From NCBI GenBank assembly GCA_041648735.1, contig JBAZOO010000005.1:1862-65861 (forward strand): a stretch of DNA of 64,000 nt, in the 5' to 3' direction. The notes under the pieces were generated by a model that saw only the letters and a program-made list of their open reading frames with translations, did no database searches and had not been told where the DNA came from. This document shows, piece by piece, positions 4,046 through 58,154 of the stretch. The position numbers were made by a program, and so were the translations under genes. Position 1 is the first letter of the stretch, and every line of letters begins with the position of its first letter. The DNA comes from Lentisphaeria bacterium. GTDB taxonomy: Bacteria > Verrucomicrobiota > Lentisphaeria > Oligosphaerales > CAITYL01.

Positions 4046-5071
4046 ATGCCTGACCATTCCGTCCTGATCCTCCACAACGCCCCGCCGGCCGACGCGCTCG
4101 AAAGCGAGAAGGGCGTGCTGGCGGAAGTCGCCGCCGTCGCCGGGGCGCTGGGGGAGCTGCGGATTCCGCACCGCATTGCCGGGGTTGCGGAGTCCGCGGC
4201 GCTGGCCGGCGTGCTGGCCGCCGCGCCGGAAGCGGTGGTCTTCAATCTCGTCGAAGGCTTTCCCGGCGATCCCGCCGCCGCCAACGCCGTCCCCGATCTC
4301 TGCCGGGCTGCTGGCAAGGAATGCACCGGCAACTCGACCGCGGCGCTGGCGCTGGCTTTGGACAAGGCCCGGGCCAAGGCGGCGCTGCAGGCCGCCGGCC
4401 TGCCCTGTCCCGGCGGCGTCCAAATCCTCCCCGGCGAAGCGGTCCCGCATGGACTCCTGCCCCGGGGCACCGTGATCCTCAAGCCCGCCGCCACCGACGC
4501 CAGCGAGGGGATTGACGAGGACGGGGTGCTCGACAGTGCGGACTCCGCACGGCTGGAGGCGGTCCTGCGCCGGCTGCACGCGCAATTCCGCCAGCCGGTG
4601 CTGGTGGAGCCGTTCATTGACGGCCGCGAGCTGAACGTCGCCGCCTTCGAGCAGGCTGGCGAACTCCGCGTGCTGCCGCTGGCGGAGATCGAGTTTGCGG
4701 AGTTCGCACCCGGCAAGCCGCGGATCGTCGGCTACCGCGCCAAATGGGACGAGGGGAGCTTCGAATGCCGCAACACCCGCCGCGTCATCCCGGCACCGCT
4801 GCCGGAAGCCGCGGCGGCGCGGCTCCGCGCCCTGGTGCGCGCGGCCTGGCGCGCCTGCGGCCTGCGCGACTATGCCCGGGTGGATTTCCGCCTCGATGCC
4901 GCCGGCGAGCCGTTCATCCTCGAAGTGAACCCGAACCCGGACATCGCCCCCGACGCCGGCTTCGCCGCCGCCCTCGCCGCCGGCGGCGTCCCGTTCCGCG
5001 AGTTTGTGGAAATGATGGTCGCCAATGCCCGCGGCCGCCTCGCCACCGCCACCGCGGCGGCGCGCCCCTGA
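4046..5071 (+). CDS. Second ATP-grasp ligase, Ddl-like
   Basis: DKARAKAALQAAGLP...VILKPAATDASEGI...VLVEPFIDGRELNV...ARVDFRLD...ILEVNPNPD. Sits 32 nt after the previous gene. Confidence 0.75.
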   Translation: MPDHSVLILHNAPPADALESEKGVLAEVAAVAGALGELRIPHRIAGVAESAALAGVLAAAPEAVVFNLVEGFPGDPAAANAVPDLCRAAGKECTGNSTAALALALDKARAKAALQAAGLPCPGGVQILPGEAVPHGLLPRGTVILKPAATDASEGIDEDGVLDSADSARLEAVLRRLHAQFRQPVLVEPFIDGRELNVAAFEQAGELRVLPLAEIEFAEFAPGKPRIVGYRAKWDEGSFECRNTRRVIPAPLPEAAAARLRALVRAAWRACGLRDYARVDFRLDAAGEPFILEVNPNPDIAPDAGFAAALAAGGVPFREFVEMMVANARGRLATATAAARP

Positions 5072-11336: not shown

Positions 11337-13436
11337 TTACGCTTTCCCCAGGGGACGGTTGGCCAGCCCCAGCTCGGCGAGGGCGGCCAGGAAGGTGGCG
11401 GCCAGCAGCCAGGGCCAGAGCGGCCGGCCGAAGCGGGCCAGTTGCAGGTTCCGTCCCTGCTCCGCGGCGGTGCGGGCGGCCAGCACCGGCAGCGGCGCGA
11501 AGCGGGTGGTGAAGGTGTCGAGCCCGGCGTAGTCCAGCTCCGCCTCTTCCGGCGGGGTGTTGACCGCCACCTGGCGCGTGATGCCGTCCCGGCTCACGGT
11601 CCAGATGCCGGGTTCGGAAAAGCCGCTGAGCACGAAAGGTTCGGCGGGCGTCCGGCGGCGGCTGGGCCGGCGGCGGGGCGGGCCGCCGGCGGGTGGCGTC
11701 AGTTCGAAGGTGGCTTCCAGCAGCGGTTCGGCCCAGGGCAGCGCCAGACTGCCGCCGGCAACCGTTTCCAGCGGGGGGTGGAGCCGGGCGGCGGCCGTGC
11801 GGAGGATTTCCTGCTGGAGGATGAGGAAGAACGGGGTCAGGGGGAAGTCCGACCAGCCGCGGTCGGCGGCGACGCTGCCCAGCCAGAGCTGGCCGGTGCC
11901 GTGGGGGAGGCCCACCAGGAAGGGGGTGCGGTCGGGGTATTCCAGCACCGCCTCGGCGGTCGCGGGCAAGTGCCTGAACAGGAGGCGGCGGCTGATGGGG
12001 AAGGTGGGGGGGGCGGCGACGATGCTCCGCAGCCGTTTTTCCACGTCCGTCGGCTGGGTGCGGGGCAGGAGGACGACCGGTTCCGCCGTGGCCGCGGCGC
12101 GCTCCGCGATGCCCAGGCCGGCCAGCACCGCCCAGCCGCGGAACCCCGGATCAACCAGGCCGCCGGCGTCACCGGGGAAGAGCAGGACGGACGAGCCGGC
12201 GGCCAGCAGGGCTTCGACCTTTTGCAGGACGGCCGGCTCGGGTGGCGGCGGATTGCAGAGCACCAGCAGGCAGCCGGGTGGCGGCTCCCGTGCCGCCAGC
12301 TCGGCCCAGGTCAGGGTTTCCAGGCGGAAGCCGGCGGCCTGGCTGGCGGTGCCGCCCGGCTGGATCGCGGCTTCGGCGAAGAGGCTTTCCGCCGGGCGGT
12401 CGCGCACGAGCCAGACCGGGATGCCGGCGTCGCGGGGGAGCACGGCATAGTGGCGGTTGTCGGGGGCGAAGGCGTCGTCGCCGAGGCGGATGGTCGCCGC
12501 GACGGCGGTGCCGGTGTCGGGGGTGGCGCCATGCAGGATGAGGGTTTGCCGTTCCCCTGGCGGTGCGGGGGGCGCGGGGCGCGTGTCCTGTTCGCTGCCG
12601 TTGAACAGCAGGGTGGCGCTCACCGTGCCGTCCCAGTCCGGGGTGGTCGCGATCTGGACGGTTGCCCGGACCGGTTCGGCGGCGAAGGCGGCGGCGGGCT
12701 GGAAGCTGGCTTGGCGGATGCCGGCGTTGGCAATTGCCTCCGGCCGGACCTGGTTGAGGAAGAGCAGCGGCTGCCGGCGGCGCAGCCGTTCCGCCAGGGT
12801 TGGCAGCCGATCCAGGGGCCAGGAGCTTTGCTGGAAATCGCTGCAGACATGGATTTCCAGGTCACGCGGCTCCAGCCCGGCCGGGGGTGTCTCCAGCCAG
12901 TTGGCGAGGGAGGTGGCGAAATCGGCCTGGATCTGGCCGGGGGCGAGGGCGGCCAAGGCGGCGCGGAGCTTGGCCTTGTCGGCGGTGGGGGGGAGCACGA
13001 CGGCCGGTTCGGGCAGGCCCGGGACGAGAAGGGCCGCCTTGTCGGACTCGCCCAGGGAGGCGAGCACGGTTTCCGCCCGCTGCCGGGCCAGGTCGAAGGC
13101 GCTTTCGGCGCCGTGGCGGAACTGCATGCTGGCGCTGGCGTCCAGGATGATCAGGGCGGTTCGCTGCTGGCCGCCGCCGCCGCCGGCCCGGGGCAAGGCC
13201 AGTTTGGGCTGGGCGAAGGCCAAGGCGAGGCAGAGCAGGATGAGCACCCGCAAGCTCAGCAGCAGCAGTTGGGTCAGCCGGCGGGAGTGGCGGGTGCGCA
13301 CCACCGCCTCCCGCAGGAAACGGAGCGTGCTGAACGGCACCGCCCGCGGCTTGCGCCGCCAGAGCAGGTGCAGGCCGACGGGGACCAGCGCCGCCGCCGC
13401 CGCCAACAGGAGCCATGGTGCGAGAAACACGGGCAT
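11337..13436 (-). CDS. BatA-like protein: N-terminal double-transmembrane domain plus vWA-like (MIDAS DxSxS) region
   Basis: MPVFLAPWLLLAAAAALVPVGLHLLWRRKPRAVPFSTLRFL is the aerotolerance BatA-type N-terminus. ALIILDASASM is MIDAS-like. C-terminal TM helix. Confidence 0.65.
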   Translation of the reverse strand: MPVFLAPWLLLAAAAALVPVGLHLLWRRKPRAVPFSTLRFLREAVVRTRHSRRLTQLLLLSLRVLILLCLALAFAQPKLALPRAGGGGGQQRTALIILDASASMQFRHGAESAFDLARQRAETVLASLGESDKAALLVPGLPEPAVVLPPTADKAKLRAALAALAPGQIQADFATSLANWLETPPAGLEPRDLEIHVCSDFQQSSWPLDRLPTLAERLRRRQPLLFLNQVRPEAIANAGIRQASFQPAAAFAAEPVRATVQIATTPDWDGTVSATLLFNGSEQDTRPAPPAPPGERQTLILHGATPDTGTAVAATIRLGDDAFAPDNRHYAVLPRDAGIPVWLVRDRPAESLFAEAAIQPGGTASQAAGFRLETLTWAELAAREPPPGCLLVLCNPPPPEPAVLQKVEALLAAGSSVLLFPGDAGGLVDPGFRGWAVLAGLGIAERAAATAEPVVLLPRTQPTDVEKRLRSIVAAPPTFPISRRLLFRHLPATAEAVLEYPDRTPFLVGLPHGTGQLWLGSVAADRGWSDFPLTPFFLILQQEILRTAAARLHPPLETVAGGSLALPWAEPLLEATFELTPPAGGPPRRRPSRRRTPAEPFVLSGFSEPGIWTVSRDGITRQVAVNTPPEEAELDYAGLDTFTTRFAPLPVLAARTAAEQGRNLQLARFGRPLWPWLLAATFLAALAELGLANRPLGKA

Positions 13437-28561: not shown

Positions 28562-28712
28562 TGCGGCTCATCTTTGCGGCGTGGGGCTACAGCACCCCGG
28601 CGGAGCGGGCCCGGGCCGCCGCCCAGCCGCGGATCGAATCCTGGCCGCTGGGGCGCTTCACCGCCGCCCCCCATTCCCGCTGACTAGGCAGCGCAAGCTC
28701 CCGCTGCCAACG

Positions 28713-29831
28713 TCACGGGTCATGCGCGGCGGGTACGCCGTCGCATGCACCCGTTTGTTGGACCTTGTATTCTGCCTTTTCTTCAAACAAGACCATTTGC
28801 CTAACTTCATCACTTGATACTATCAAGTCATCTCTTGATGCCCGTGTGCTGCTACCGCTCTTGAAGCTGCAGAATACATCTTCAAGAGTCACGTTTGCGT
28901 CGTCGGAAACAAGTTCCGCAAGAACCTTACGGACAGACTCAAGGGGTCTTCCCTCAAGAAAGCGGAAAGCGGAAGCCGCCAAGTAGTCTCTGCTTAGGTC
29001 AAACGTCAGCCATCTGCGACCAAGCGCTTCTGCGGCAAATCCCGTTGTATTCGACCCACCGAAGAGATCCAAGACTATGTCTCCTTCATCGGTCAGCATC
29101 TTGATGAAGAATGTGGGCACTTCGACAGGGAACCGGGCAGGATGGCGTTCCAGTCCGAACTCCTTGCAGAGCCAAAGGTAACTGGAATTGCTGTCGGTAT
29201 TGGGGATGGTGAGCAGGTTCGATGGTATGGCACCGCCGTTGTCCTTGCCGAAGCCGGCACTGATGTCATGCCCGGATGGGCGTTTCTTCGGTTTGTAGAA
29301 ACTCCCGGGATCCTCAAGCAGTTTCTTCATCCGCTCGGAGTACGGGGCCAGGACCTTCCGTACGTCGGCTTTCGGAGAATCCGTTTTGCTGAACCACCAA
29401 ACCGTATTGACGGAGTCCTTGGCCCGAATCTTGCGCTTGTTCACCCACTCGATGGGGGATGGCAGCTTGGCTGGATTGAACCAGTAAAAATCCTCGGCTA
29501 GGTGAAAACCAACAGTATCGCAGAAGGTAAGCAGAACCCTGAAGTTGTAAAGCGAGCGTGACGGGACACCTGCTCGATAAGCACCGCCAAGATCAAGGAC
29601 AAAACTCCCGGTCTTCTTGAGAACTCTAAAGACCTCTCTGCCAAAAGGCGTAATCCAAGCTACATACTCTGTTTCCTCAACATTGCCGTATGATTTCTGC
29701 CGCCTCAGGGCAAACGGTGGGGAGGTCACTACAAGATCGATGCTTTCGTCCTCCATTTCCTTGAGGAGAGCCAAAGCATCGCCCACAACGGCCCGCCCGT
29801 AGCGTGTGACGTATAGCGGCGGAGTTCGCAT
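28713..29831 (-). CDS. Beta-class DNA methyltransferase (N4-cytosine or N6-adenine; SPPF motif favours N4-cytosine)
   Basis: Motif IV DLVVTSPPFAL precedes motif I DIVLDLFGGSNTTG (beta permutation, PF01555-type). AT-richer than flanks. The last ~15 codons run into high-GC DNA. Confidence 0.85.
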   Translation of the reverse strand: MRTPPLYVTRYGRAVVGDALALLKEMEDESIDLVVTSPPFALRRQKSYGNVEETEYVAWITPFGREVFRVLKKTGSFVLDLGGAYRAGVPSRSLYNFRVLLTFCDTVGFHLAEDFYWFNPAKLPSPIEWVNKRKIRAKDSVNTVWWFSKTDSPKADVRKVLAPYSERMKKLLEDPGSFYKPKKRPSGHDISAGFGKDNGGAIPSNLLTIPNTDSNSSYLWLCKEFGLERHPARFPVEVPTFFIKMLTDEGDIVLDLFGGSNTTGFAAEALGRRWLTFDLSRDYLAASAFRFLEGRPLESVRKVLAELVSDDANVTLEDVFCSFKSGSSTRASRDDLIVSSDEVRQMVLFEEKAEYKVQQTGACDGVPAAHDP

Positions 29832-29832
29832 T

Positions 29833-31308
29833 CTAGAACTCCCTCAAGCCGTCAACCCAACTTTCGAGAATCTGCCACAGGACACTTGCCGCGAAATAGA
29901 CCTCCGGGTCTGACTTACATATTGCACCTACGTCGGCTTCGGCAAGGTGATCCCTGCCGTGGCCGACGATGTAACTGACCCATTTCCTGAGGTTATCGTC
30001 CGCGCCAACGAGGACGGCGTTCGGGTCGAAACCGCCTGATCGCGCAAGTACCCAAGAAAGTCCGTCTCTCTGATCTGGCGAGCACGTCTTCAGCAAATCC
30101 ACCACATGAGCAACTTGTGGCCCTGTGATCCTGAGAAGTGATCTTGCCGCTTCTGTCTTCACATCCAGTGCGGTTGAGTTGAAGGTATCAACGAGAGCAC
30201 TTGCGGCAGTGCGGGTAGCGAACTGCCCGAGTGCCCAGGCCGCTCCTGCCCTGAGTTCCTCGTCGCGCCTACCATCTCGCAAGACATCGATGAGTAGGTT
30301 CTCGCTTCTGGGGTTCGGGATTTCCGAGACTACAATCACCGTTTCCAGTTGAGTCTCAAGCGGGACATCCATAACTGCACTACGCAGTTTGCTCTCTATG
30401 AATGCCCATCCTTCGGGATGGTCACACGCCGCGAGCGCTGCGGCTGCTTCGAGTTGCACGTAGATGTCTTCTTCCGCGTGGATAATCCTGTCTGCAAGCG
30501 CAGCGCGCGCGCTCGTGTACCCTCGATAGCGCAATGCCTTGGCGGCAGCATACCGCTCGCTTAGGTTGATACTGGTGAGCTTGGCAACAAAATACGCCTC
30601 ATCGACCGAGGGCGGGCAGGACACTGAGACTGTCACCGGAACGGAGGCCGCAACGATCTGGTTGGCTTCAACTGCGTCACCAACACGAACCTGCGGCTCC
30701 AGCGTGTTCGCTCCCTTACTGCGAAACAACTGGATCGTCTGAATGCGACCAGATGGTTGATGCGTCAACTGGATGCGCTTTGCCGAAACCTCGGAGACGG
30801 TTGACAGTTGCTTGGCTATTGCGGAGGGCCACACCACACGGATTTCCGAGCCTTCTTCGACCCCCTTCGGCTTGGTGATGGAGACGCGCTTCTGGGCAAA
30901 TGCGTCGCGCAAGTCCTTCACCTTGATGAACAGTACCGGCGAGATGCGTTTCAAGTCGATGGGTGACTTGGCGCTCTGCTGGAAGACGACGATCGAAACG
31001 AAGTCACCATCCCGCATTCCCGCATCCCATGCGCGCTTAGGGTCCTTCAGCGAGTGGGACATCGAGATTTCCGGCTTGGTCTTGCCTCTGGATTCAAAAC
31101 GCAGGCCTGTCTGCAGGCACAGAATGTCGGGTACGCGGACACGTTTGATCTTGATCTTCTTCCATATCTTGAAGCCGGTGGAGCCCCGCTCCAGCTCAAT
31201 CGGCCTGAAACCAAGTGCGGTCAAGCGGTCAATCGGTGCATTCGTCCCGGCAGCTCCCACCGCCAGTTTTCGTAAGAAACTGTCATCGCTTTTGAAGTTA
31301 GCCGCCAC
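29833..31308 (-). CDS. Putative restriction-endonuclease-like N-terminal domain fused to C-terminal HEAT (PBS-lyase-type) repeats
   Basis: GTG start with GAGG RBS. Stop lies 1 nt before the methyltransferase ATG. The candidate PD-(D/E)xK-like segment is VRVPDILCLQTGLRFESRGK. HEAT-like repeats include ERYAAAKALRYRG, ELRAGAAWALGQFA and VKTEAARSLLRITG. Confidence 0.45.
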   Translation of the reverse strand: MAANFKSDDSFLRKLAVGAAGTNAPIDRLTALGFRPIELERGSTGFKIWKKIKIKRVRVPDILCLQTGLRFESRGKTKPEISMSHSLKDPKRAWDAGMRDGDFVSIVVFQQSAKSPIDLKRISPVLFIKVKDLRDAFAQKRVSITKPKGVEEGSEIRVVWPSAIAKQLSTVSEVSAKRIQLTHQPSGRIQTIQLFRSKGANTLEPQVRVGDAVEANQIVAASVPVTVSVSCPPSVDEAYFVAKLTSINLSERYAAAKALRYRGYTSARAALADRIIHAEEDIYVQLEAAAALAACDHPEGWAFIESKLRSAVMDVPLETQLETVIVVSEIPNPRSENLLIDVLRDGRRDEELRAGAAWALGQFATRTAASALVDTFNSTALDVKTEAARSLLRITGPQVAHVVDLLKTCSPDQRDGLSWVLARSGGFDPNAVLVGADDNLRKWVSYIVGHGRDHLAEADVGAICKSDPEVYFAASVLWQILESWVDGLREF

Positions 31309-31417
31309 AAAACCTCATGTCGCTCTCGTCTGCCTGTAGGTAATTCACGTGTATCATCTTTCCGGCCCAACGCCGCCGGTCTGCGACGAGCGGAGCGAAG
31401 TCCGCAGCATCGGCTGG

Positions 31418-31591
31418 TTATGTCAATATCTTGAGGATGTGGCGGGCCAAGTTCTCGTCGATCTCAGTATGCCGCGGAACCGGTTGCCGCTTGCCCGTTT
31501 TCGGATTCACGAATAGATCGTGGCGTCCGCCTGCTCGTACGAAGACGCATCCGGCGGCGGTCAATCGCCGTATGAGTTCCTTGCGTTTCAT
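31418..31591 (-). CDS. hicA: HicA-family toxin (mRNA interferase)
   Basis: 57 aa, not in the ORF track: MKRKELIRRLTAAGCVFVRAGGRHDLFVNPKTGKRQPVPRHTEIDENLARHILKILT. The ATG overlaps the hicB stop (ATGA). Confidence 0.8.
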   Translation of the reverse strand: MKRKELIRRLTAAGCVFVRAGGRHDLFVNPKTGKRQPVPRHTEIDENLARHILKILT

Positions 31592-31785: not shown

Positions 31786-31891
31786 CAGTCAACTCCTTTA
31801 TCTTTGATCATCCTCATGCGACATAACGTCTGCACTCATGGTTTTGGCGCGCTAGCGACAAATACCATGCAGTGCTTGGTTCGCATTTCCT

Positions 31892-50307: not shown

Positions 50308-51081
50308 ATGATCATCGGCATTTGCGGCGAGCCGGCACGGAGCGGCCTCTTCGCCGCCATGGGATTCCAGTTCCTGGAAGTGAACATCCAGGAGATGCTG
50401 GTGCCACTGGCGCCCGAGGCGGAGTTCGCGCCGAAGCTGGCGGAATTGCGGAGTTCGCGCCTGCCGGTCAAGGCCGCCAACTGCTTCTTTCCCGCCGGCC
50501 TCAAGCTCACCGGGCCCGCAGTTGATCCCGGGCGGCTCCTGGCCTATGCGGCGACCGCCTGCGAGCGGGCCGGGCGGGCCGGCATCGAGACGCTGGTCCT
50601 CGGCTCCGGCGGCGCCCGCCAGATCCCCGAGGGGTTCCCGCGGGAAGCGGCCGGGGAGCAGCTCCTGGCATTTGCCAAGAGCCTCGGCCCGGTGGCGGCC
50701 AAGGCCGGAGTGACGGTCGTCCTGGAACCGCTCAACAGCAAGGAATGCAACGTGTTCAACACGGTGCCGGAATGCGCGGCCTTCGTCCGCCAAGTCAACC
50801 ATCCCGCCATCCGCCTGCTGGTGGACGCCTACCACTGGTGCCAGGAAGGGGAGGGCGCGGCGGATTTGTTGGCGGCCGCGCCGCTCCTCGCCCATGCCCA
50901 CCTCGCCTCCTGCCCCAACCGCCGCGGCCCCGGCGAGGAGGCGTGCGACTATTCCGCCTTCTTCCAGGCGCTCCAGGCCGGCGGCTATGCGGGCCGGCTC
51001 GCGGTGGAGGCCATCTGGCTCGACCTCGAGCGCAATGGCGCCGCCGCCGTCCGCCTCCTCGAACGCCTCCTGGCGGCCTGA
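50308..51081 (+). CDS. Sugar phosphate isomerase/epimerase (xylose isomerase-like TIM barrel), intact copy
   Basis: Start MIIGICG at 50308. VVLEPLNSKECNVFNT...LLVDAYHW...AHAHLAS. Confidence 0.8.
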   Translation: MIIGICGEPARSGLFAAMGFQFLEVNIQEMLVPLAPEAEFAPKLAELRSSRLPVKAANCFFPAGLKLTGPAVDPGRLLAYAATACERAGRAGIETLVLGSGGARQIPEGFPREAAGEQLLAFAKSLGPVAAKAGVTVVLEPLNSKECNVFNTVPECAAFVRQVNHPAIRLLVDAYHWCQEGEGAADLLAAAPLLAHAHLASCPNRRGPGEEACDYSAFFQALQAGGYAGRLAVEAIWLDLERNGAAAVRLLERLLAA

Positions 51082-51122
51082 TCCCAATTCAACTTCCGTG
51101 AAGGCAAACGGCCGGGGCCGGC

Positions 51123-52283
51123 TCAGGGGATTTCGAGGCAAGCCGGGGCGCGGGTCAGCTTTTCGCAGCCGCCGGCGGTGACCACGACCACGTCCTCCAG
51201 GCGGATGCCGCCCCAGGCCGGGTCGTAGGTGCCGGGCTCGACGGTGATGACCTCCCCTTCCCGCAACGGCTCGGTGGCGGTGGAATTGACCCGCGGCGCC
51301 TCATGCACCTCCAGCCCGAGCCCGTGGCCGAGGCCGTGGAAGAAGCCGACGGGCGGATTGGCGTCCAGATCGGTGGGGAAGCCGGCGGCGTCGAGGACAC
51401 CCTTGGCGGCGAGGTGGATCTCCTTGGGGATCGCGCCGGCCCGGACCAGGGCGAGGGCCGTTTCCTGGGCCTGGCGCACCGCCGCCCAGGCCCGGCGGAC
51501 GACCGGGGCCGCCTCCCCCTTGACCACCGTCCGGGTGAGGTCGCCGAAGTAGCCGGTGCGGTCCACCCGCGGGAAGATGTCGAGCACCAACGGCTCGTGG
51601 GCGCGGATCGGCCCTTCGCCGGCCTGGTGCGGATCGGCCCCTTGCGCCCCCGGGGCCACAATGGTGTGCGCCGCGGTGCCGCCGGCCCGGGCGATGGCGG
51701 CGGCGATTTCGCCCCGGAGCCGCTCGGCGGTGAGTGCCGCCCCCTCCCACCACAGGATCCGGTCGGGGCCGGGGACGGCCTCGCGGAGGATCGCCAGCGC
51801 CCGGTCGAGGCCGAGTTCGGCCAGGGCCACCCCGTCCCGGATCCGGGCGACTTCCGCCACATCCTTCCGTTGCCGCTCGGGGAAGAAACGGTCGACGGGC
51901 ACCACCTCCAGCCCGGCGGCGGCCAGCTTCCGCGCCAGCCCGCAGGGCGTCGCCGCCGGCGTCTCCCAGCGATCCAGCCCATGCCGCCGGGCCAGCGTGG
52001 CCAGCACGGCCTCCGGTGGCAGCTTGACGGTGGACTCCAACCCGTAGCGCTCGCGGAACTCCTGCTCGGCCAGCACGGCGACGCCGGGCCGCACCGCCTT
52101 GCGGGCACGGCCGACCTCCAGCGGGCTCAGCAGCGCCGCCGTCAGCCCCGGCACGGCGAACCAGAGGAAGGCATCCGGCGTCTGCAAGCCGGTGGCATAG
52201 AGCATGTCGGCGGAACTTTCGCCGGCGGCCCAGATGAAGCGGCCGGTGGCGATGGCGGCGTTGGCGGTGGCGGCATCCGTCAT
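51123..52283 (-). CDS. pepP: Xaa-Pro aminopeptidase (M24B), copy 1
   Basis: Start MTDAATANA at 52283. HGLGHGLGLEVHE, VITVEPG, IRLEDVV. Confidence 0.85.
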   Translation of the reverse strand: MTDAATANAAIATGRFIWAAGESSADMLYATGLQTPDAFLWFAVPGLTAALLSPLEVGRARKAVRPGVAVLAEQEFRERYGLESTVKLPPEAVLATLARRHGLDRWETPAATPCGLARKLAAAGLEVVPVDRFFPERQRKDVAEVARIRDGVALAELGLDRALAILREAVPGPDRILWWEGAALTAERLRGEIAAAIARAGGTAAHTIVAPGAQGADPHQAGEGPIRAHEPLVLDIFPRVDRTGYFGDLTRTVVKGEAAPVVRRAWAAVRQAQETALALVRAGAIPKEIHLAAKGVLDAAGFPTDLDANPPVGFFHGLGHGLGLEVHEAPRVNSTATEPLREGEVITVEPGTYDPAWGGIRLEDVVVVTAGGCEKLTRAPACLEIP

Positions 52284-52330
52284 GGAACTCTCCGGGATGG
52301 GCTGGACAGCCCCCAACATAATCGCGGATT

Positions 52331-52399
52331 CCGATTCCCGGTTGCCGGTTGCCGATTCCCGGGTGCCGGTTGCCGATTCCCGGGTGCCGGTTGCCGAAT
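52331..52399. repeat. 21-bp tandem repeat, 3.3 units (1.3 units in the duplicate at 57265-57293)
   Basis: CCGATTCCCGG(T/G)TGCCGGTTG occurs three times, then CCGAATTGG. Lies between the pepP start and the GT9 fragment. Accounts for the 42-bp length difference between the two large repeats. Confidence 0.9.
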
Positions 52400-52410
52400 T
52401 GGAACCTGGC

Positions 52411-52504
52411 TCAGAGGCAATGGCAGCGGCCCAAGGGACGCCACACCCGCGGCTCGGTGGCGACGAACCGCGCCAGCACCGGGATCCCCAGCGCCGCCGC
52501 CAGG
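52411..52504 (-). pseudogene. 3'-terminal fragment (28 codons + stop) of the GT9 glycosyltransferase gene
   Basis: AALGIPVLARFVATEPRVWRPLGRCHCL is identical to the end of the intact gene at 57303-58154. Homology stops at 52504. Confidence 0.8.
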
Positions 52505-52708
52505 ATTGCCGCCCTGCCGCGCCTGGAGCTGGCCGCCACCACCACCGGAGCCGCCACGGGGCCGGCGGAGCCCGACCGCGCCGCCCTGCTGGCCGCCCTG
52601 GCACGCCTGGCGGACTCCGCACCCACGGAAGCCGTCCGCCGGGCCGTGGCGCTGCTGCGGGAGGGCGGGAAGATTCCCCCCAATGGGCAATGGCAAGTCG
52701 GCCGCTGA
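52505..52708 (+). pseudogene. Probable 3' remnant of an unidentified high-GC gene at the inner junction
   Basis: The open frame reads ...PDRAALLAALARLADSAPTEAVRRAVALLREGGKIP and ends at 52708. It has no own start and carries one copy of the abundant host motif (52610). Confidence 0.35.
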
Positions 52709-52727
52709 CCCAAGGAGGGTTCCATCA

Positions 52728-52943
52728 ATGGGAACGCAAAAAATCTGCTTGGACTGCCGCCTACGCTTCCCCATGGACGCCAAGGCGTGCCCCCGCTGCG
52801 GGGGGGATGAATACGGCATCGAGGCCGGCGAGATCACTGCCCCCCCGTTCCCGAAACCGCCAGAAGGGACCGCGCCGCCGCCAATCTCTTGGGTTTTCGC
52901 TTGTGTGCCCAGAACGCGGTGTGCTATATTGGCCACGCCTTGA
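52728..52943 (+). CDS. Small zinc-ribbon protein (71 aa), possibly truncated
   Basis: AAGGAGGG RBS 8 nt upstream. MGTQKICLDCRLRFPMDAKACPRCGG (CxxC-N12-CxxC) then a Pro-rich tail. Ends exactly where GC content drops. Confidence 0.4.
   Translation: MGTQKICLDCRLRFPMDAKACPRCGGDEYGIEAGEITAPPFPKPPEGTAPPPISWVFACVPRTRCAILATP
52901..52930 (+). promoter_or_regulatory. Possible promoter of the island-2 cassette
   Basis: TTGTGT-N18-TATATT, about 145 nt upstream of the ATG at 53075. Confidence 0.25.
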
Positions 52944-53074
52944 ATCCGTTATACCGGCTGTCTGCGGAACGCCGGGGCAGGAGACACTGCAAGAACAGGA
53001 ACGATGGCTGTCCGTTGAGTAGCGGTCGGCACTGACGGAAACGTGGGCAACGACGAGTAGAGAGGAAGTGCATC

Positions 53075-53527
53075 ATGGCGCAGTGTGTTACTTGCGGGGC
53101 AAGTCTGAAACCGGGGGCAACACGGTGCGTTAAATGTGGAACTGCGCTGGAAGTGGTTGCACCACCTCCACAAGCGCAACAGCCACAGTATGCGCCCCCT
53201 GCACAACCGTATCCTCAACAACCGCAGGTACGCTATGTTCAGCAACCGCAGCAGGCCCAAGCGCCCCGTTGTACCAAGAGCAAGACGACGGCTGCCACCC
53301 TTGCCATCCTGCTGGGCGCACTGGGTGTTCACAAGTTCTATCTCGGCAAGAAGTGGCAAGGCTTTCTCTACCTTTTCTTCCTCGACATCTCTATTAGCAA
53401 CGCATTGTGCGATGGCGAGTTGATATTATGGGTGCCGAAGATCCTGTGGTTTTTCGGATTGTGCGAGGGGATCTATTACTCGACGATGAAAGAAGAAGTG
53501 TTTTGCCAGAAGTACGGCCAGAAGTAG
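53075..53527 (+). CDS. Zinc-ribbon + Pro/Gln-rich linker + TM2-domain membrane protein
   Basis: MAQCVTCGASLKPGATRCVKCG. PQ-rich linker. LAILLGALGVHKFYLGKKWQG is the TM2-domain signature. RBS AGAGGAAG. Confidence 0.75.
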   Translation: MAQCVTCGASLKPGATRCVKCGTALEVVAPPPQAQQPQYAPPAQPYPQQPQVRYVQQPQQAQAPRCTKSKTTAATLAILLGALGVHKFYLGKKWQGFLYLFFLDISISNALCDGELILWVPKILWFFGLCEGIYYSTMKEEVFCQKYGQK

Positions 53528-53541
53528 GAGGGTTCATCGCC

Positions 53542-54351
53542 ATGACTTCACACATTCAAAGACCGACCCCAATGAAGTTTGTGTTGGCGGTGATCGGATT
53601 GACCGCCACGGCCATACTTGTGACCGCGACAGGTGGCTACCTTGTAACCGAACCACCAAGAGGCTTCATGGTTTGGGTTGGGATTGGGTTCTTATGTACA
53701 ATCGAATTCCTTGCAGGAATTCTGACGGTCAACATCTTCGCTCGTGCTCGCTGCGAGTACCGGCCAAGCGGCGCGATACTGGCAATAACTTATGGCATCA
53801 TCGGGGCGTTTGCAGCATCCGGGTTGCTGAGCATCGTGGTGTACTGGGTATTGCGGGACAGCGAGGGATCGAAGGACGGGGCTTTCACTGCCGCCATGAT
53901 GGCAATTACCGTCTTCTGGTTCATCGTTGCAGTCGTGTTATACGCATATGATTTGCACAGTCAGGCGGTCGCGCGCCCGTCCAAGGAGAAGCGTGCAGAA
54001 CACAAGAACGTCGCCAAGTCACTAGCACCGCTACTGTCCGCTCTTCGTGCATTCAAGACCACGGACGACAGCGTGCGCACCCGTGTTTCCGTAGCGCTAA
54101 AGAAGCTTGAATCCATTGATGGTGCCTTTTCGCATTCTTACGGAGGTGGCATGGGATCATGGGAAGGAGGGCGCCAACATCCTTCTCCATCAGGTGAAGA
54201 TCAAACACTTCAAGAGAACGCCGGAAGATTGGCGAGTCTCGCCCCTCGGTTCTCAGGTGGGATCGCAACCGATGTTGGATCGACGCTAACCGAAATTGAA
54301 CAATGCATTGAAACAGTGTCGCGATCTTTGGACGAGGTTGAGCTTCGATAG
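53542..54351 (+). CDS. Four-TM membrane protein with ~110-aa cytoplasmic C-terminal helical domain, unknown family
   Basis: AGGAGGG RBS. Four hydrophobic segments lie between residues ~10 and 150, followed by KEKRAEHKNVAKSLAPLLSALRAF...LTEIEQCIETVSRSLDEVEL. Sits 14 nt after the previous gene. Confidence 0.6.
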   Translation: MTSHIQRPTPMKFVLAVIGLTATAILVTATGGYLVTEPPRGFMVWVGIGFLCTIEFLAGILTVNIFARARCEYRPSGAILAITYGIIGAFAASGLLSIVVYWVLRDSEGSKDGAFTAAMMAITVFWFIVAVVLYAYDLHSQAVARPSKEKRAEHKNVAKSLAPLLSALRAFKTTDDSVRTRVSVALKKLESIDGAFSHSYGGGMGSWEGGRQHPSPSGEDQTLQENAGRLASLAPRFSGGIATDVGSTLTEIEQCIETVSRSLDEVELR

Positions 54352-54363
54352 GAGGAATCAGCC

Positions 54364-55383
54364 ATGCCAATTCTTGACATCATTGAGTTCTTTGACGACA
54401 CAGGTGAAATTATAGTCTCCAAGATCCCGTACGAAAGATCAGGTGAGTTTCGGCTTGGCACTCAACTTGTTGTACAGGAAAGTCAAAATGCCATCTTCTT
54501 CCGCGATGGACAAGCCTTGGATGGTTTTGGGCCAGGTCGCCATACGCTTTCTACTCAGAACCTGCCGCTCTTGGGCAGGATCATTGGCGCGCCTTTTGGA
54601 GGCAAGTCGCCTTTCAGAAGCTATGTCTATTTTATTGCCACAAAGACGTTCATCAATCTTGGTTGGGGAACTCAGTCGCCTGTTTTGTTCCGTGATACTG
54701 ATTTCCGCATGATTAGCCTTCGCGCACACGGGGCGTTTTCCGTCCGAATAGTGAAGCCGAGAACCTTTCTCAATACACTTGTTGGAACGCGCGGGATGGA
54801 GACGACCTTTGCTTTGGAGGAATTCTTCAGGACTGTGATCGTGTCGAGACTGAACGAGGCGCTCGGGTCGATAATGAAGTCTATTCTCGACCTTCCCGTT
54901 CACTACAACACAATCGCTTTGAAAACCAAAGAAGCCGTCGCTACGGATTTCGATCAGTATGGCATCCAGCTAGTCGACCTTCTGGTTCAAGCGATAACCC
55001 CGCATCCAGAAGTCCAAGAAATGATTAATCGTGCAAGTGGGGTTGCCGCGCAGGATGCGGAGAAGTACAAGCAAATTGCAGCGGCAGATGCCATGAGAGA
55101 CGCTGCAAAGAATCCCGGCGGCTTAGCTGGCGATGGAATGGGGGCTGGCATGGGTCTCGCGCTTGGGTTCGGCATGGCTCAACAGATGGCGCAAGGACTC
55201 GCGCCGACCCGACCGTCAGATGCGCGTCCGACAGGTGCCAGCCCACGAGAAACTGCCTCATCTAAGATGTCGCCGTCTGAATTGAAGACAAAACTGAAGG
55301 AGTTGAAGGAACTCAAGGATGAGGGGCTCATTGGCGACGCTGACTTTGAAGAGCAAAAGCGCCGACTATTGACCATGATTTAG
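54364..55383 (+). CDS. SPFH/band-7 superfamily protein of the YdjI / COG4260 (virion-core-like) type with C-terminal SHOCT-like motif
   Basis: ILDIIEFFDDTGEIIVSKIP...GTQLVVQESQNAIFFRDGQALDGFGPGRHTLSTQNLPLL matches the COG4260 N-terminus as I recall it. C-terminal LKELKELKDEGLIGDADFEEQKRRLL is SHOCT-like. GGAGG RBS, 12 nt after the previous stop. Confidence 0.8.
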   Translation: MPILDIIEFFDDTGEIIVSKIPYERSGEFRLGTQLVVQESQNAIFFRDGQALDGFGPGRHTLSTQNLPLLGRIIGAPFGGKSPFRSYVYFIATKTFINLGWGTQSPVLFRDTDFRMISLRAHGAFSVRIVKPRTFLNTLVGTRGMETTFALEEFFRTVIVSRLNEALGSIMKSILDLPVHYNTIALKTKEAVATDFDQYGIQLVDLLVQAITPHPEVQEMINRASGVAAQDAEKYKQIAAADAMRDAAKNPGGLAGDGMGAGMGLALGFGMAQQMAQGLAPTRPSDARPTGASPRETASSKMSPSELKTKLKELKELKDEGLIGDADFEEQKRRLLTMI

Positions 55384-55557
55384 AGAGCCAAACAAGGGCC
55401 TGACCGGCGCGGGGCCGCGCGTGGTCTTGATTACCTTGCGTCAACCAACCGTACCGCCTTCCTGCGCCACGTCGCCTTCTTCAGAGACGGGTAAGCTTCT
55501 GCAACCTGCCCCCGCCGCCAGGCGAACGGGATGCGCTCCACACGGCAACCCCGGATG

Positions 55558-56015
55558 TCCCCGAGGGGTTCCCGCGGGAGGCGGCCGGGGAGCAGCTCCT
55601 GGCATTTGCCAAGAGCCTCGGCCCGGTGGCGGCCAAGGCCGGGGTGACGGTCGTCCTGGAACCGCTCAACAGCAAGGAATGCAACGTGTTCAACACGGTG
55701 CCGGAATGCGCGGCCTTCGTCCGCCAAGTCAACCATCCCGCCATCCGCCTGCTGGTGGACGCCTACCACTGGTGCCAGGAAGGGGAGGGCGCGGCGGATT
55801 TGTTGGCGGCCGCGCCGCTCCTCGCCCATGCCCACCTCGCCTCCTGCCCCAACCGCCGCGGCCCCGGCGAGGAGGCGTGCGACTATTCCGCCTTCTTCCA
55901 GGCGCTCCAGGCCGGCGGCTATGCGGGCCGGCTCGCGGTGGAGGCCATCTGGCTCGACCTCGAGCGCAATGGCGCCGCCGCCGTCCGCCTCCTCGAACGC
56001 CTCCTGGCGGCCTGA
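55558..56015 (+). pseudogene. 3' fragment of the sugar phosphate isomerase gene (duplicate, lacks the first ~105 codons)
   Basis: Near-identical to 50624-51081. Homology begins abruptly at 55558. Confidence 0.85.
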
Positions 56016-56056
56016 TCCCAATTCAACTTCCGTGAAGGCAAACGGCCGGGGCCGGC

Positions 56057-57217
56057 TCAGGGGATTTCGAGGCAAGCCGGGGCGCGGGTCAGCTTTTCGC
56101 AGCCGCCGGCGGTGACCACGACCACGTCCTCCAGGCGGATGCCGCCCCAGGCCGGGTCGTAGGTGCCGGGCTCGACGGTGATGACCTCCCCTTCCCGCAA
56201 CGGCTCGGTGGCGGTGGAATTGACCCGCGGCGCCTCATGCACCTCCAGCCCGAGCCCGTGGCCGAGGCCGTGGAAGAAGCCGACGGGCGGATTGGCGTCC
56301 AGATCGGTGGGGAAGCCGGCGGCGTCGAGGACACCCTTGGCGGCGAGGTGGATCTCCTTGGGGATCGCGCCGGCCCGGACCAGGGCGAGGGCCGTTTCCT
56401 GGGCCTGGCGCACCGCCGCCCAGGCCCGGCGGACGACCGGGGCCGCCTCCCCCTTGACCACCGTCCGGGTGAGGTCGCCGAAGTAGCCGGTGCGGTCCAC
56501 CCGCGGGAAGATGTCGAGCACCAACGGCTCGTGGGCGCGGATCGGCCCTTCGCCGGCCTGGTGCGGATCGGCCCCTTGCGCCCCCGGGGCCACAATGGTG
56601 TGCGCCGCGGTGCCGCCGGCCCGGGCGATGGCGGCGGCGATTTCGCCCCGGAGCCGCTCGGCGGTGAGTGCCGCCCCCTCCCACCACAGGATCCGGTCGG
56701 GGCCGGGGACGGCCTCGCGGAGGATCGCCAGCGCCCGGTCGAGGCCGAGTTCGGCCAGGGCCACCCCGTCCCGGATCCGGGCGACTTCCGCCACATCCTT
56801 CCGTTGCCGCTCGGGGAAGAAACGGTCGACGGGCACCACCTCCAGCCCGGCGGCGGCCAGCTTCCGCGCCAGCCCGCAGGGCGTCGCCGCCGGCGTCTCC
56901 CAGCGATCCAGCCCATGCCGCCGGGCCAGCGTGGCCAGCACGGCCTCCGGTGGCAGCTTGACGGTGGACTCCAACCCGTAGCGCTCGCGGAACTCCTGCT
57001 CGGCCAGCACGGCGACGCCGGGCCGCACCGCCTTGCGGGCACGGCCGACCTCCAGCGGGCTCAGCAGCGCCGCCGTCAGTCCCGGGACGGCGAACCAGAG
57101 GAACGGATCCGGCGTCTGCAACCCGGTGGCATAGAGCATGTCGGCGGAACTTTCGCCGGCGGCCCAGATGAAGCGGCCGGTGGCGATGGCGGCGTTGGCG
57201 GTGGCGGCATCCGTCAT
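56057..57217 (-). CDS. pepP: Xaa-Pro aminopeptidase (M24B), copy 2
   Basis: Same length as copy 1. Differs in a few N-terminal residues (for example TPDPFLW versus TPDAFLW). Confidence 0.85.
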   Translation of the reverse strand: MTDAATANAAIATGRFIWAAGESSADMLYATGLQTPDPFLWFAVPGLTAALLSPLEVGRARKAVRPGVAVLAEQEFRERYGLESTVKLPPEAVLATLARRHGLDRWETPAATPCGLARKLAAAGLEVVPVDRFFPERQRKDVAEVARIRDGVALAELGLDRALAILREAVPGPDRILWWEGAALTAERLRGEIAAAIARAGGTAAHTIVAPGAQGADPHQAGEGPIRAHEPLVLDIFPRVDRTGYFGDLTRTVVKGEAAPVVRRAWAAVRQAQETALALVRAGAIPKEIHLAAKGVLDAAGFPTDLDANPPVGFFHGLGHGLGLEVHEAPRVNSTATEPLREGEVITVEPGTYDPAWGGIRLEDVVVVTAGGCEKLTRAPACLEIP

Positions 57218-57302
57218 GGAACTCTCCGGGATGGGCTGGAAAGTCCTCAACATAATCGCGGATTCCGATTCCCGGTTGCCGGTTGCCGAATTGGAACCTG
57301 GC

Positions 57303-58154
57303 TCAGAGGCAATGGCAGCGGCCCAAGGGACGCCACACCCGCGGCTCGGTGGCGACGAACCGCGCCAGCACCGGAATCCCCAGCGCCGCCGCCAGGTGCG
57401 ACACCCCCGAGTCGTTGCCCACAAACCGCCGCGCCCGCCGCCGCAGCGCCGCCGCCAGTTCCGCCAACGCCAAACCCTCCACCACTTCCGCCGCGACGCC
57501 GGCCGCCGCCAGCGCCGCCAGCACCGGCCCGCGCACGGCGGCGTCCGCCTCCCCGAACGAGACCACCACCGGCGCCCCGGCCGTCCGGAGCCGCCAGCGC
57601 CGGGCGACCTCCGCAAACCAGGCCGGCGCCGCGTTCTTCCGCGGGCTCCCGCTCCCCGGATGCAGCCACAGCGCGGCCGCCTCCCGGTTGCGGCCCGCCG
57701 CGGCCGGCTTCCCCCAGGACGCCAGTTGCGGAGTCCGCAACAAGTCGGCGGGGACGGGCAGGCCGGCGGCGCGCAGGAAGCTGGCGGCGGCGGGTTCCGG
57801 GCCGGTGGGGCGGGGGGGGATCCAGGTGGGCGTGATCCCGTGCCGGGCCAGGTTCGCGGCGAGGGTGGGATCCGCTGCCAGGAAGGCCAGGAACCGCCCG
57901 CCGCGCCAGGTTTCCGGCAGCGTTGCGGACTCCGCAAACAAGGCTGTGCCGGCCGCGGAGTCCGCATCCCGGAAGGTGATGGCCGTGGCCAGTTCCGGCG
58001 GCAGCAGGGGGCGGTAGGCGGGGCGGGAGAGCAGGATGACCGGATCGCCGCGCCGGAGCAGTTCCCGCAGCAGCGGCAGGGTCAGCAGGAAATCGCCGAG
58101 GGCGCCGTTGCGGTAGACGATGGCCGGGGCCTGGGCGGGGCGGCCGGCGCCCAT
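57303..58154 (-). CDS. Glycosyltransferase family 9 (heptosyltransferase-like), intact copy
   Basis: IVYRNGALGDFLLTLPLLREL...FVGNDSGVSHLAAALGIPVLARF. Its ATG overlaps the stop of the upstream TPR gene by 1 nt. Confidence 0.8.
   Translation of the reverse strand: MGAGRPAQAPAIVYRNGALGDFLLTLPLLRELLRRGDPVILLSRPAYRPLLPPELATAITFRDADSAAGTALFAESATLPETWRGGRFLAFLAADPTLAANLARHGITPTWIPPRPTGPEPAAASFLRAAGLPVPADLLRTPQLASWGKPAAAGRNREAAALWLHPGSGSPRKNAAPAWFAEVARRWRLRTAGAPVVVSFGEADAAVRGPVLAALAAAGVAAEVVEGLALAELAAALRRRARRFVGNDSGVSHLAAALGIPVLARFVATEPRVWRPLGRCHCL

Follow-up and report, generated by a model that had tools for sequence, protein, structure and literature searches.

A three-gene SPFH operon with two small membrane proteins, found as a stranded integron cassette in a Lentisphaeria genome, is a candidate membrane scaffold

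We analysed a 64,000-nucleotide stretch of a Lentisphaeria bacterium genome (contig JBAZOO010000005.1 of assembly GCA_041648735.1, positions 1,862 to 65,861 of the forward strand; hereafter the window), in which a low-GC insert carries three tightly packed genes, termed A, B and C. They encode a zinc-ribbon and TM2-domain protein, a protein with four transmembrane (TM) helices that belongs to an unannotated family, and an SPFH protein that ends in a SHOCT-like segment, respectively. The three genes form a conserved self-contained operon, present here as an immobilised integron cassette, and we hold with moderate confidence that they encode a membrane scaffold in which A and B anchor an SPFH ring of C. 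SPFH proteins are ubiquitous organisers of membranes, and to our knowledge the targeting of bacterial SPFH proteins devoid of an anchor is known from one system only, YdjGHI (also SamGHI). The trio would represent a second, far more widespread solution to SPFH targeting, built from different parts. It would also tie two orphans, the bacterial TM2 domain and the four-TM family with an HSHGGG motif, to an SPFH scaffold as a testable three-protein complex. A survey of the literature on SPFH, TM2 and COG4260 proteins found no description of a unit of TM2, B and Band_7_1 proteins, of the B family or of integron carriage. As far as the sequences tell, the proposed design, an SPFH scaffold with trans-acting membrane adaptors, is of a known kind, and the trio adds to it a new mode of mobility, namely carriage by integrons.

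Gene organization of the trio

The three genes share the forward strand of the window.

53075..53527 (+): gene A, 150 residues; zinc ribbon, Pro/Gln-rich linker and TM2 domain
53542..54351 (+): gene B, 269 residues; four-TM protein with a helical tail, unannotated family
54364..55383 (+): gene C, 339 residues; Band_7_1 SPFH protein with a SHOCT-like end

All three open reading frames (ORFs) are intact and of full length. The ORF listing together with direct reading of the sequence places the ATG of B at 53542, which leaves a gap of 14 nt between A and B and of 12 nt between B and C, and each gene has a strong Shine-Dalgarno site (GAGAGGAAG for A, AGGAGG for B and AGGAGGA for C). The GC content is 0.50-0.57 at 53000-55400 compared to 0.69-0.78 in both flanks; the DNA of the trio has ~52% GC, about 18 points lower than the ~70% of the host genome. 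Both the close packing of three genes with strong ribosome-binding sites and their AT-richer composition had been described in a first-pass annotation made from the letters alone, and both are confirmed in the sequence. Its domain assignments (zinc ribbon, PQ linker and TM2; four TM helices with a helical tail; SPFH with a SHOCT-like end) also proved correct, SHOCT lying just under the cut-off. The profile and structure searches that it had recommended resolve A as Zn_Ribbon_1 plus TM2, leave B without a matching family or fold, and place C in Band_7_1 with an SPFH fold.

Conservation of the A-B-C module

A, B and C make up the only conserved gene set of these loci, recurring in ~40 independent contexts of at least six phyla. 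C directly follows B in 17 of the first 17 loci, and a zinc-ribbon/TM2 protein precedes B in 13 of them. Six sampled C orthologues (56-77% identity) all come with a TM2 protein, a Pfam-less protein of 261-270 residues and the Band_7_1 protein, and profile searches identified the middle protein of these six loci as B. A census of 80 more metagenome loci, in which SHOCT-type C genes with enough upstream DNA were counted, gave 24 loci with A, B and C, 8 with B and C, and one with neither recognised (L057). The census C genes that lack A and B belong mostly to a sister clade whose SPFH protein carries a double zinc ribbon as a C-terminal fusion. All-against-all clustering of the neighbours in 70 locus groups revealed no other conserved neighbour gene, and no PspA_IM30 gene is present in the insert or within ~8 kb in a dozen annotated contexts. 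The claims of the first-pass annotation that the trio is self-contained, that it co-occurs elsewhere and that it lacks PspA thus stand, with B and C adjacent in every locus examined.

The three proteins evolve at different rates. B proteins are 27-46% identical where the C proteins are 60-75% identical, and the dN/dS values between the window copy and the trio of locus L113, on an 88-kb contig, are 0.20 for A, 0.21 for B and 0.05 for C. Values between L113 and a further locus, L031, are similar for B and C, whereas that of A is not calculable because its synonymous sites are saturated. Comparison of the coding sequences indicates that the trio genes evolved as functional coding sequences under purifying selection, with C far more constrained than A and B.

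Several variants of the module were observed. In a distant Planctomycetota branch, a Pmp3/YqaE-like two-TM protein takes the place of A, and a zinc-ribbon multi-TM protein follows C. This order of Pmp3/YqaE-like protein, B, C and zinc-ribbon multi-TM protein occurs in L014 (6371-9162), L015 and L016, from metagenome-assembled genomes (MAGs) of Planctomycetota and Actinomycetota; the L014-type variant adjoins an apparent tRNA gene, judged from a translated ORF only. In the sister clade (L084-L112, for example L086 9929-11068) the double zinc ribbon replaces SHOCT and there is no upstream TM2 or B gene; in L086, a 236-residue soluble coiled-coil-like protein precedes the SPFH gene. The flanks of L021, L023/L024, L028, L029 and L009 often encode other small membrane proteins without a known function (DUF4190, DUF4234, DUF5684, DUF4282, MamF_MmsF, DUF2752, DUF3592, DUF975 and GYF_2), none of which is conserved across loci. 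Such recurrent small membrane proteins beside the trio may hint at clients of the scaffold.

Domain structure of the three proteins

Protein A scored 26.2 bits against Zn_Ribbon_1 (cut-off 25) and 51.2 bits against TM2 (PF05154, cut-off 27.9), the latter match spanning only positions 2-38 of the 51 in the profile, and NCBI names it a TM2 domain-containing protein. Its N-terminal C4 zinc ribbon (residues 4-24) is joined by a Pro/Gln-rich linker to two TM helices, after which comes a short conserved tail, FCQKYG. Because there is no signal peptide and basic residues precede the first helix, the ribbon and the tail are both predicted to be cytoplasmic. A sequence search of the PDB with A gave nothing usable.

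Protein B matched no Pfam, NCBIfam or PADLOC family. Hydropathy and an AlphaFold2 model, with a mean pLDDT (predicted local distance difference test) of 69.6, place its four TM helices at residues 9-35, 41-67, 77-105 and 112-140, followed by a helical tail of ~130 residues that is predicted to be cytoplasmic. The loops PPRGF, YRPSGA and RD..G..DG are conserved. In addition, a near-invariant motif, AL-HSHGGG-x-GS-x-E, lies in a disordered loop predicted to be cytoplasmic (residues 198-208, window 54133-54165); H198 and G201-203 are invariant in 44 sequences with a mean column identity of 39%. The HSHGGG loop might be a metal-binding, docking or catalytic site. A word-indexed search found 19 relatives of B, and an exhaustive profile search of 1.84 billion proteins found 112 cluster representatives, all of ~265 residues. 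DUF6057 was considered as a family assignment, since it appeared in 8 of 44 B homologues, and was judged compositional (best E-value 4e-4); other Pfam matches were scattered and weak. Neither a TPM match nor any other recurrent Pfam family was found in B and its 43 homologues, in agreement with the earlier view of the middle protein as no relative of the TPM-type YdjH.

Protein C matched Band_7_1 (PF13421) with an E-value of 2e-52 and 178.3 bits (cut-off 24), and SHOCT (PF09851) with 26.0 bits, just below the cut-off of 27. Two helices are predicted at the C-terminus, at residues 304-319 and 325-337, and this segment is conserved across 34 orthologues. In the AlphaFold2 model (pLDDT 75.3), the SPFH core, approximately residues 1-230, is of high confidence, and is followed by a helix, a hydrophobic stretch rich in Gly, Met and Ala (~255-278), a disordered linker and the two-helix SHOCT-like segment. 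Structural similarity search using Foldseek revealed matches to stomatin, prohibitin, HflK/C and flotillin (E-values of 1e-10 to 1e-6) as well as QmcA (1e-10 to 1e-5 for the five together), each with a probability of 1.00, and to the major vault protein. A sequence search of the PDB found no matching chain. Hydropathy gave no TM segment or hydrophobic anchor in C. Relatives of C number 2027 at E-values of at most 1e-10, the best 120 of the 2027 being all at least 51% identical, and the protein of the window retains every residue that is invariant in the family.

A proposed scaffold with membrane adaptors

In the arrangement that we propose, the zinc ribbon and C-terminal tail of A would lie in the cytoplasm and its two TM helices in the membrane, whereas B would cross the membrane with four TM helices, both termini being cytoplasmic and the helical tail carrying the HSHGGG loop. 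A and B would jointly constitute an integral-membrane receptor, which would recruit C, a protein with no anchor of its own, to the inner face of the membrane. Once there, C would oligomerise via the SPFH domain, the following helix and the SHOCT-like segment into a ring or cage as in solved SPFH assemblies. The outcome would be a delimited microdomain, which would keep the membrane stable, monitor it or organise client proteins. Assembly of C into a ring or cage is inferred by analogy with solved homologues (stomatin, prohibitin, HflK/C, flotillin and QmcA), and the domain so formed could serve to stabilise the membrane, to organise clients or to gate an effector. That the zinc ribbon and the SPFH protein belong together physically is suggested by the sister clade, since it fuses a double zinc ribbon to C at loci without A and B.

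The nearest functional parallel is the PspA-YdjGHI system, renamed SamGHI, in which the gene of an anchorless SPFH protein likewise directly follows two membrane-protein genes, one of them encoding a zinc-ribbon protein (PMC8581546; 10.64898/2026.02.06.704340; PMC11237479). In Bacillus subtilis, formation of membrane foci by the soluble SPFH protein YdjI depends on two membrane proteins, YdjG, which carries zinc ribbons, and YdjH (PMC8581546), and loss of YdjI unbalances signalling by YdjG and YdjH (10.64898/2026.02.06.704340); the link between YdjGHI and PspA has been described repeatedly (PMC8581546, PMC11237479, PMC9239133). The trio differs from this system in several respects. Its loci are without PspA, and it is mobile as an integron cassette. 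YdjG combines two zinc ribbons with an NTF2-like domain and a TM segment, whereas the zinc-ribbon partner A is a TM2-domain protein; in place of the TPM-domain protein YdjH stands B, a four-TM protein of an unannotated family; and the C-terminal end is SHOCT-like in C but a zinc finger in YdjI. Because two defining features, PspA and the TPM protein, are missing, we do not file the trio under YdjGHI, although its mode of action is probably similar.

The combination of Band_7_1 and SHOCT was noted in 2013 (PMC3581485). In canonical COG4260/Band_7_1 proteins, which make up the sister clade of L084-L112, the double zinc ribbon is fused to the C-terminus; they resemble C in the SPFH core, at 50-53% identity, and in having the Gly/Met-rich stretch. 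In the trio, by contrast, the ribbon sits on a separate membrane protein, C terminates in the SHOCT-like segment, and the TM2 and B genes are adjacent. Similarly, HflK/C-FtsH, QmcA-YbbJ/NfeD, stomatin, prohibitin and flotillin resemble C in the SPFH fold with its following helix and in an operon with a small membrane protein. However, these systems possess their own N-terminal TM segment or hairpin anchor and have NfeD or FtsH as partners, and C has neither.

The trio as an integron cassette

Loci L113-L116 were reached via P0377, a member of the 90% cluster of C. L113, L115 and L116 have in common a block of 2361-2398 bp, 100% identical, whose only genes are A, B and C; the flanks on either side are unrelated. 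The block starts at G/TTCGGC and ends at ...GGCGCAACG/TTC (...CAACG/TTC), a slash marking the boundary. The regions between the small same-strand ORFs of L113 each hold an imperfect palindrome, 60-120 nt long, that starts with ..CGAACAAGG and ends with ..CTGAC/GTTCGGC, a pattern that corresponds in sequence to integron attC architecture. Aligning ten such sites yielded a consensus hairpin in which the AAC core pairs with the GTT core, and 8 of its 15 pairs show covariation. The covariance model derived from this ten-site alignment detected more than 20 sites in L113, many of which had not been part of the training set, in addition to the trio's own attC in L031 at 46 bits; it found no sites in 30 other trio loci besides these two. 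An intact attC of L113 folds with a z-score of -3.4 against shuffled sequence. Since identical blocks in different arrays end at attC core sites, and the attC hairpins display covariation, the trio subclade to which the window copy belongs is identified from sequence as a three-gene integron cassette of 2.39 kb, which has moved between arrays very recently. The identical cassettes in three arrays imply that bacteria exchange the trio as a ready-made accessory trait.

Like other integron cassettes, the trio of L113, L115, L116 and L031 is bounded by the G/TT core, has its own attC hairpin and lies in same-strand arrays. Unlike typical cassettes and the phage-resistance cassettes (BRiCs), it is large, with three genes, and it is not known to have a defence function. 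The array of L113 (1-13300) contains attC sites of two size classes (~68 nt and ~119 nt); its small ORFs are mostly Pfam-less, and DDE_5 transposases lie downstream. One of the 119-nt attC sites recurs in near-identical form (4672-4790 and 11399-11517). In L031, positions 115-801, just upstream of the trio cassette, contain part of an IS91-family (Y2) transposase together with a tandem repeat, and the GC content there is 0.63 compared to 0.50.

The window copy is 82% identical to the L113 cassette over 53038-55402 and 71% identical to that of L031 over 53059-55402. Its two ends were defined as follows.

53024..53030 (+): 5' boundary of the cassette, GGTCGGC, a one-base variant of GTTCGGC; assigned by eye from the boundary alignment
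55384..55402 (+): attC remnant of 19 nt, the R''/L'' half, AGAGCCAAACAAGGGCCTG; cassette homology stops here

The core GTTCGGC starts the identical cassettes of L113, L115 and L116, and that of L031. In contrast to array cassettes, the copy in the window has no functional attC and is outside any recognisable array: no model match with an E-value of 10 or lower was found near the trio, and the fold of 55384-55450 does not surpass that of shuffled sequence (z +0.17). The interval between an upstream small ORF and A (52944-53023) was considered as a further attC candidate and was rejected, with no model match and a fold z-score of -0.47. From these boundaries the window copy reads as a stranded, immobilised cassette, whose coding regions are intact and the rest of whose attC is missing or decayed. 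The low-GC island of the window is explained by this stranded cassette, and the earlier proposal that the unit had been mobilised horizontally as a cassette holds in a literal sense, as it is an integron gene cassette in close relatives.

Integrity of the window copy

Several observations weigh against the scaffold proposal, or against its present form. The Gly/Met-rich stretch of C might, by its sequence, itself bind membrane, making A and B clients rather than anchors, and the HSHGGG loop of B could be a catalytic or metal-binding site rather than a docking site; the model of B found no fold match in the PDB. A limited search, using jackhmmer with integrase seeds, found no tyrosine recombinase, the class to be expected of an integron integrase, in the window or in 21 kb of the 88-kb L113 contig. 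Moreover, A of the window has an insertion of 15-16 residues in the second TM2 helix compared to A of L113 and L031, B reads HSYGGG, with Tyr for the second His of the motif, unlike L113, and no sigma-70-like promoter was seen upstream of A, though this consensus may not suit Lentisphaeria.

The last three observations are also what one would expect if the trio of the window were a non-functional relic, that is, a cassette fragment stranded with neither promoter nor attC and starting to decay. Neither the insertion within a TM helix of A nor the His-to-Tyr change in a near-invariant motif of B is found in the closest relative. The genes next to the trio are on the opposite strand, the attC is lost, and the insert lies within an unstable-looking 1.9-kb direct duplication. 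On the other hand, the three full-length ORFs retain their Shine-Dalgarno sites, C keeps its family-invariant residues, and dN/dS is no higher between the window and L113 than between two intact cassettes. The affected motif position also varies in other members of the B family (for example HSTGGG and HTSGGG), and the promoter scan covered the sigma-70 consensus only. We regard a non-functional relic as distinctly unlikely.

A routine housekeeping paralogue, inherited vertically at this locus, is a further reading of the SPFH gene. Many copies of the trio in other phyla do lie among housekeeping genes and are syntenic within a lineage. At the present locus, however, the GC content is far under that of the host, the host gene order, duplicated on both sides, is broken by the insert, and the 82% nucleotide identity is to a mobile cassette in unrelated flanks, with homology ending at the cassette boundaries. 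Housekeeping inheritance is accordingly highly improbable; as an integron cassette, the trio is an accessory, exchangeable trait and not part of the housekeeping set of this genome.

Is the trio a defence system?

The first-pass annotation had suggested an abortive-infection or envelope-stress module, and had named enrichment in defence islands as a test. In an anti-phage version, an SPFH cage would hold the TM2 protein and/or the four-TM protein inactive, until perturbation by a phage, or a phage protein, releases them to depolarise or permeabilise the membrane. The integron carriage of the subclade accords with this, as integrons are documented reservoirs of phage defence (10.1101/2024.07.02.601719; 10.64898/2026.03.17.712381 and its references 4-6). 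The L001-L004 lineage resides in integrative elements beside MmeI-type and type III restriction-modification genes and a HEPN/PLD/SNF2 gene, and the other integron-like island of the window carries a DNA methylase. A and B, moreover, evolve much faster than C (dN/dS of 0.2 compared to 0.05).

Most of the independent contexts are nevertheless ordinary chromosomal ones, next to EF-Tu and ribosomal genes, a riboflavin operon, TsaD, MurD, glycosyltransferases or kinases. Integrase or restriction-modification neighbours were found only in L001-L004 and L106 among 112 loci, and among the ~40 independent contexts only L001-L004 lies beside restriction-modification or HEPN genes, so that there is no enrichment in defence islands. 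PADLOC-DB v2.0.0 contains no family that matches any of the four proteins (the trio and the product of the upstream small ORF) at an E-value of 1 or lower. No copy was present in IMG/VR or in 50,697 phage records, where only a 27% identical paralogue occurs, and a literature search found no link of SPFH or TM2 proteins to phage defence. Plasmids contained only trio paralogues of less than 37% identity. The claim of a defence system is left unsupported by the PADLOC result and by the lack of a phage-borne copy, and we judge anti-phage action rather unlikely.

A broader version, in which the trio is an integron-disseminated membrane-guard system that acts in phage defence or in protection from acute membrane damage, with the SPFH cage gating a small-membrane-protein effector, is likewise a tentative proposal to which we give little weight. 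If true, it would place the bacterial TM2 domain in a functional context for the first time; the eukaryotic relatives of this domain, the TM2D proteins, are mechanistically unexplained. Integrons have lately been recognised as banks of defence and stress genes, which makes the L113-type cassette a candidate for phage and membrane-stress screens.

The insert and the flanking duplication

The cassette is part of a longer insert bracketed by a direct duplication of host DNA.

50624..52504 (no strand): left copy of the 1.9-kb direct repeat; 3' part of a TIM-barrel gene, M24 peptidase gene and 3' end of a heptosyltransferase gene
52505..55557 (no strand): unique insert U, not shared with the flanking duplication
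52728..52943 (+): small four-Cys zinc-ribbon ORF, 71 residues; CxxC...CxxC, Shine-Dalgarno site AAGGAGG
55558..57396 (no strand): right copy of the 1.9-kb direct repeat, running on into an intact heptosyltransferase gene

Insert U comprises, in order, 520 bp of high-GC DNA with the small ORF, the cassette-derived segment 53024-55402 and 155 bp of high-GC DNA. The small ORF had been described as a possibly truncated zinc-ribbon gene that precedes the trio. It exists and has four cysteines, but its zinc-ribbon profile scores are all sub-threshold, and it lies in high-GC DNA upstream of and outside the cassette. It forms a singleton cluster with a homologue in none of the other trio loci, and is called as a gene in one assembly and not in the other. 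That it might be a truncated relative of A was considered; homology to A was not detectable. By its sequence, the small ORF is placed outside the conserved module, and its status as a gene is uncertain.

No integrase or transposase was found at the insertion site, and there is no tRNA gene in the window. The ends of the insert were scanned for terminal repeats, direct or inverted, and the only one was the 11-mer CCGCCGCCAGG, which is at chance level for this composition, and a classical insertion sequence or transposon is ruled out on that ground.

The two copies of the duplication (50624-52504 and 55558-57396) are 99.4% identical, with 10 single-nucleotide differences in the first aligned block of 1732 bp and 4 in the adjoining block of 138 bp. 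This identity suggests either two alleles or an old event. A further difference of 42 nt corresponds to the copy number of a 21-nt tandem repeat, CGGTTGCCGATTCCCGGGTGC, which is present in three copies on the left (52325-52397) and one on the right (57259-57289). The repeat is located just ahead of the M24 peptidase gene of the JGI gene calls, inside a longer minus-strand ORF that extends this gene and in which it would encode repeated ATGTRES units.

An assembly artefact was considered for the duplication. Both junctions of the insert are reproduced in an independent contig from another sample (L008, 4858 bp), and the structure of duplication and insert is therefore not an artefact of a single assembly. 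The length of this contig is near that of one repeat unit, 4934 bp, and also fits a circular form of ~4.9 kb in that sample. Possible routes of the cassette to its place between the duplicated segments are a Campbell-type integration of a circle carrying a host segment, or capture at an unequal junction of sister strands. As for the host, NCBI assigns identical glutamine synthetase III, TM2 and SPFH proteins to a Lentisphaeria MAG. The nearest relative of the glutamine synthetase III is only 76% identical, and no close host relative was available for a comparison of synteny.

A putative second cassette cluster in the window

The covariance model from ten L113-type sites, run over the window with filters off, detected only three attC-type sites, all of them in a second low-GC island.

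28704-28766 (-): attC-type site, 40.6 bits, E-value 1e-7; cores TCCAAC ... GTTGGCA, fold z-score -5.6
28713-29831: N6/N4 DNA methylase gene
29833-31308: HEAT-repeat gene
31364-31426 (-): attC-type site, 20.5 bits, E-value about 0.01
31820-31888 (-): attC-type site, 33 bits, E-value 8.5e-6

The jackhmmer search with integrase seeds found no integrase in the window for this island either, and from its sequence the segment 28704-31888 looks like an integron cassette cluster without an integrase. It lies 21 kb from the trio and is better preserved, and its three attC sites show that cassettes sharing this attC type have been acquired by the host.

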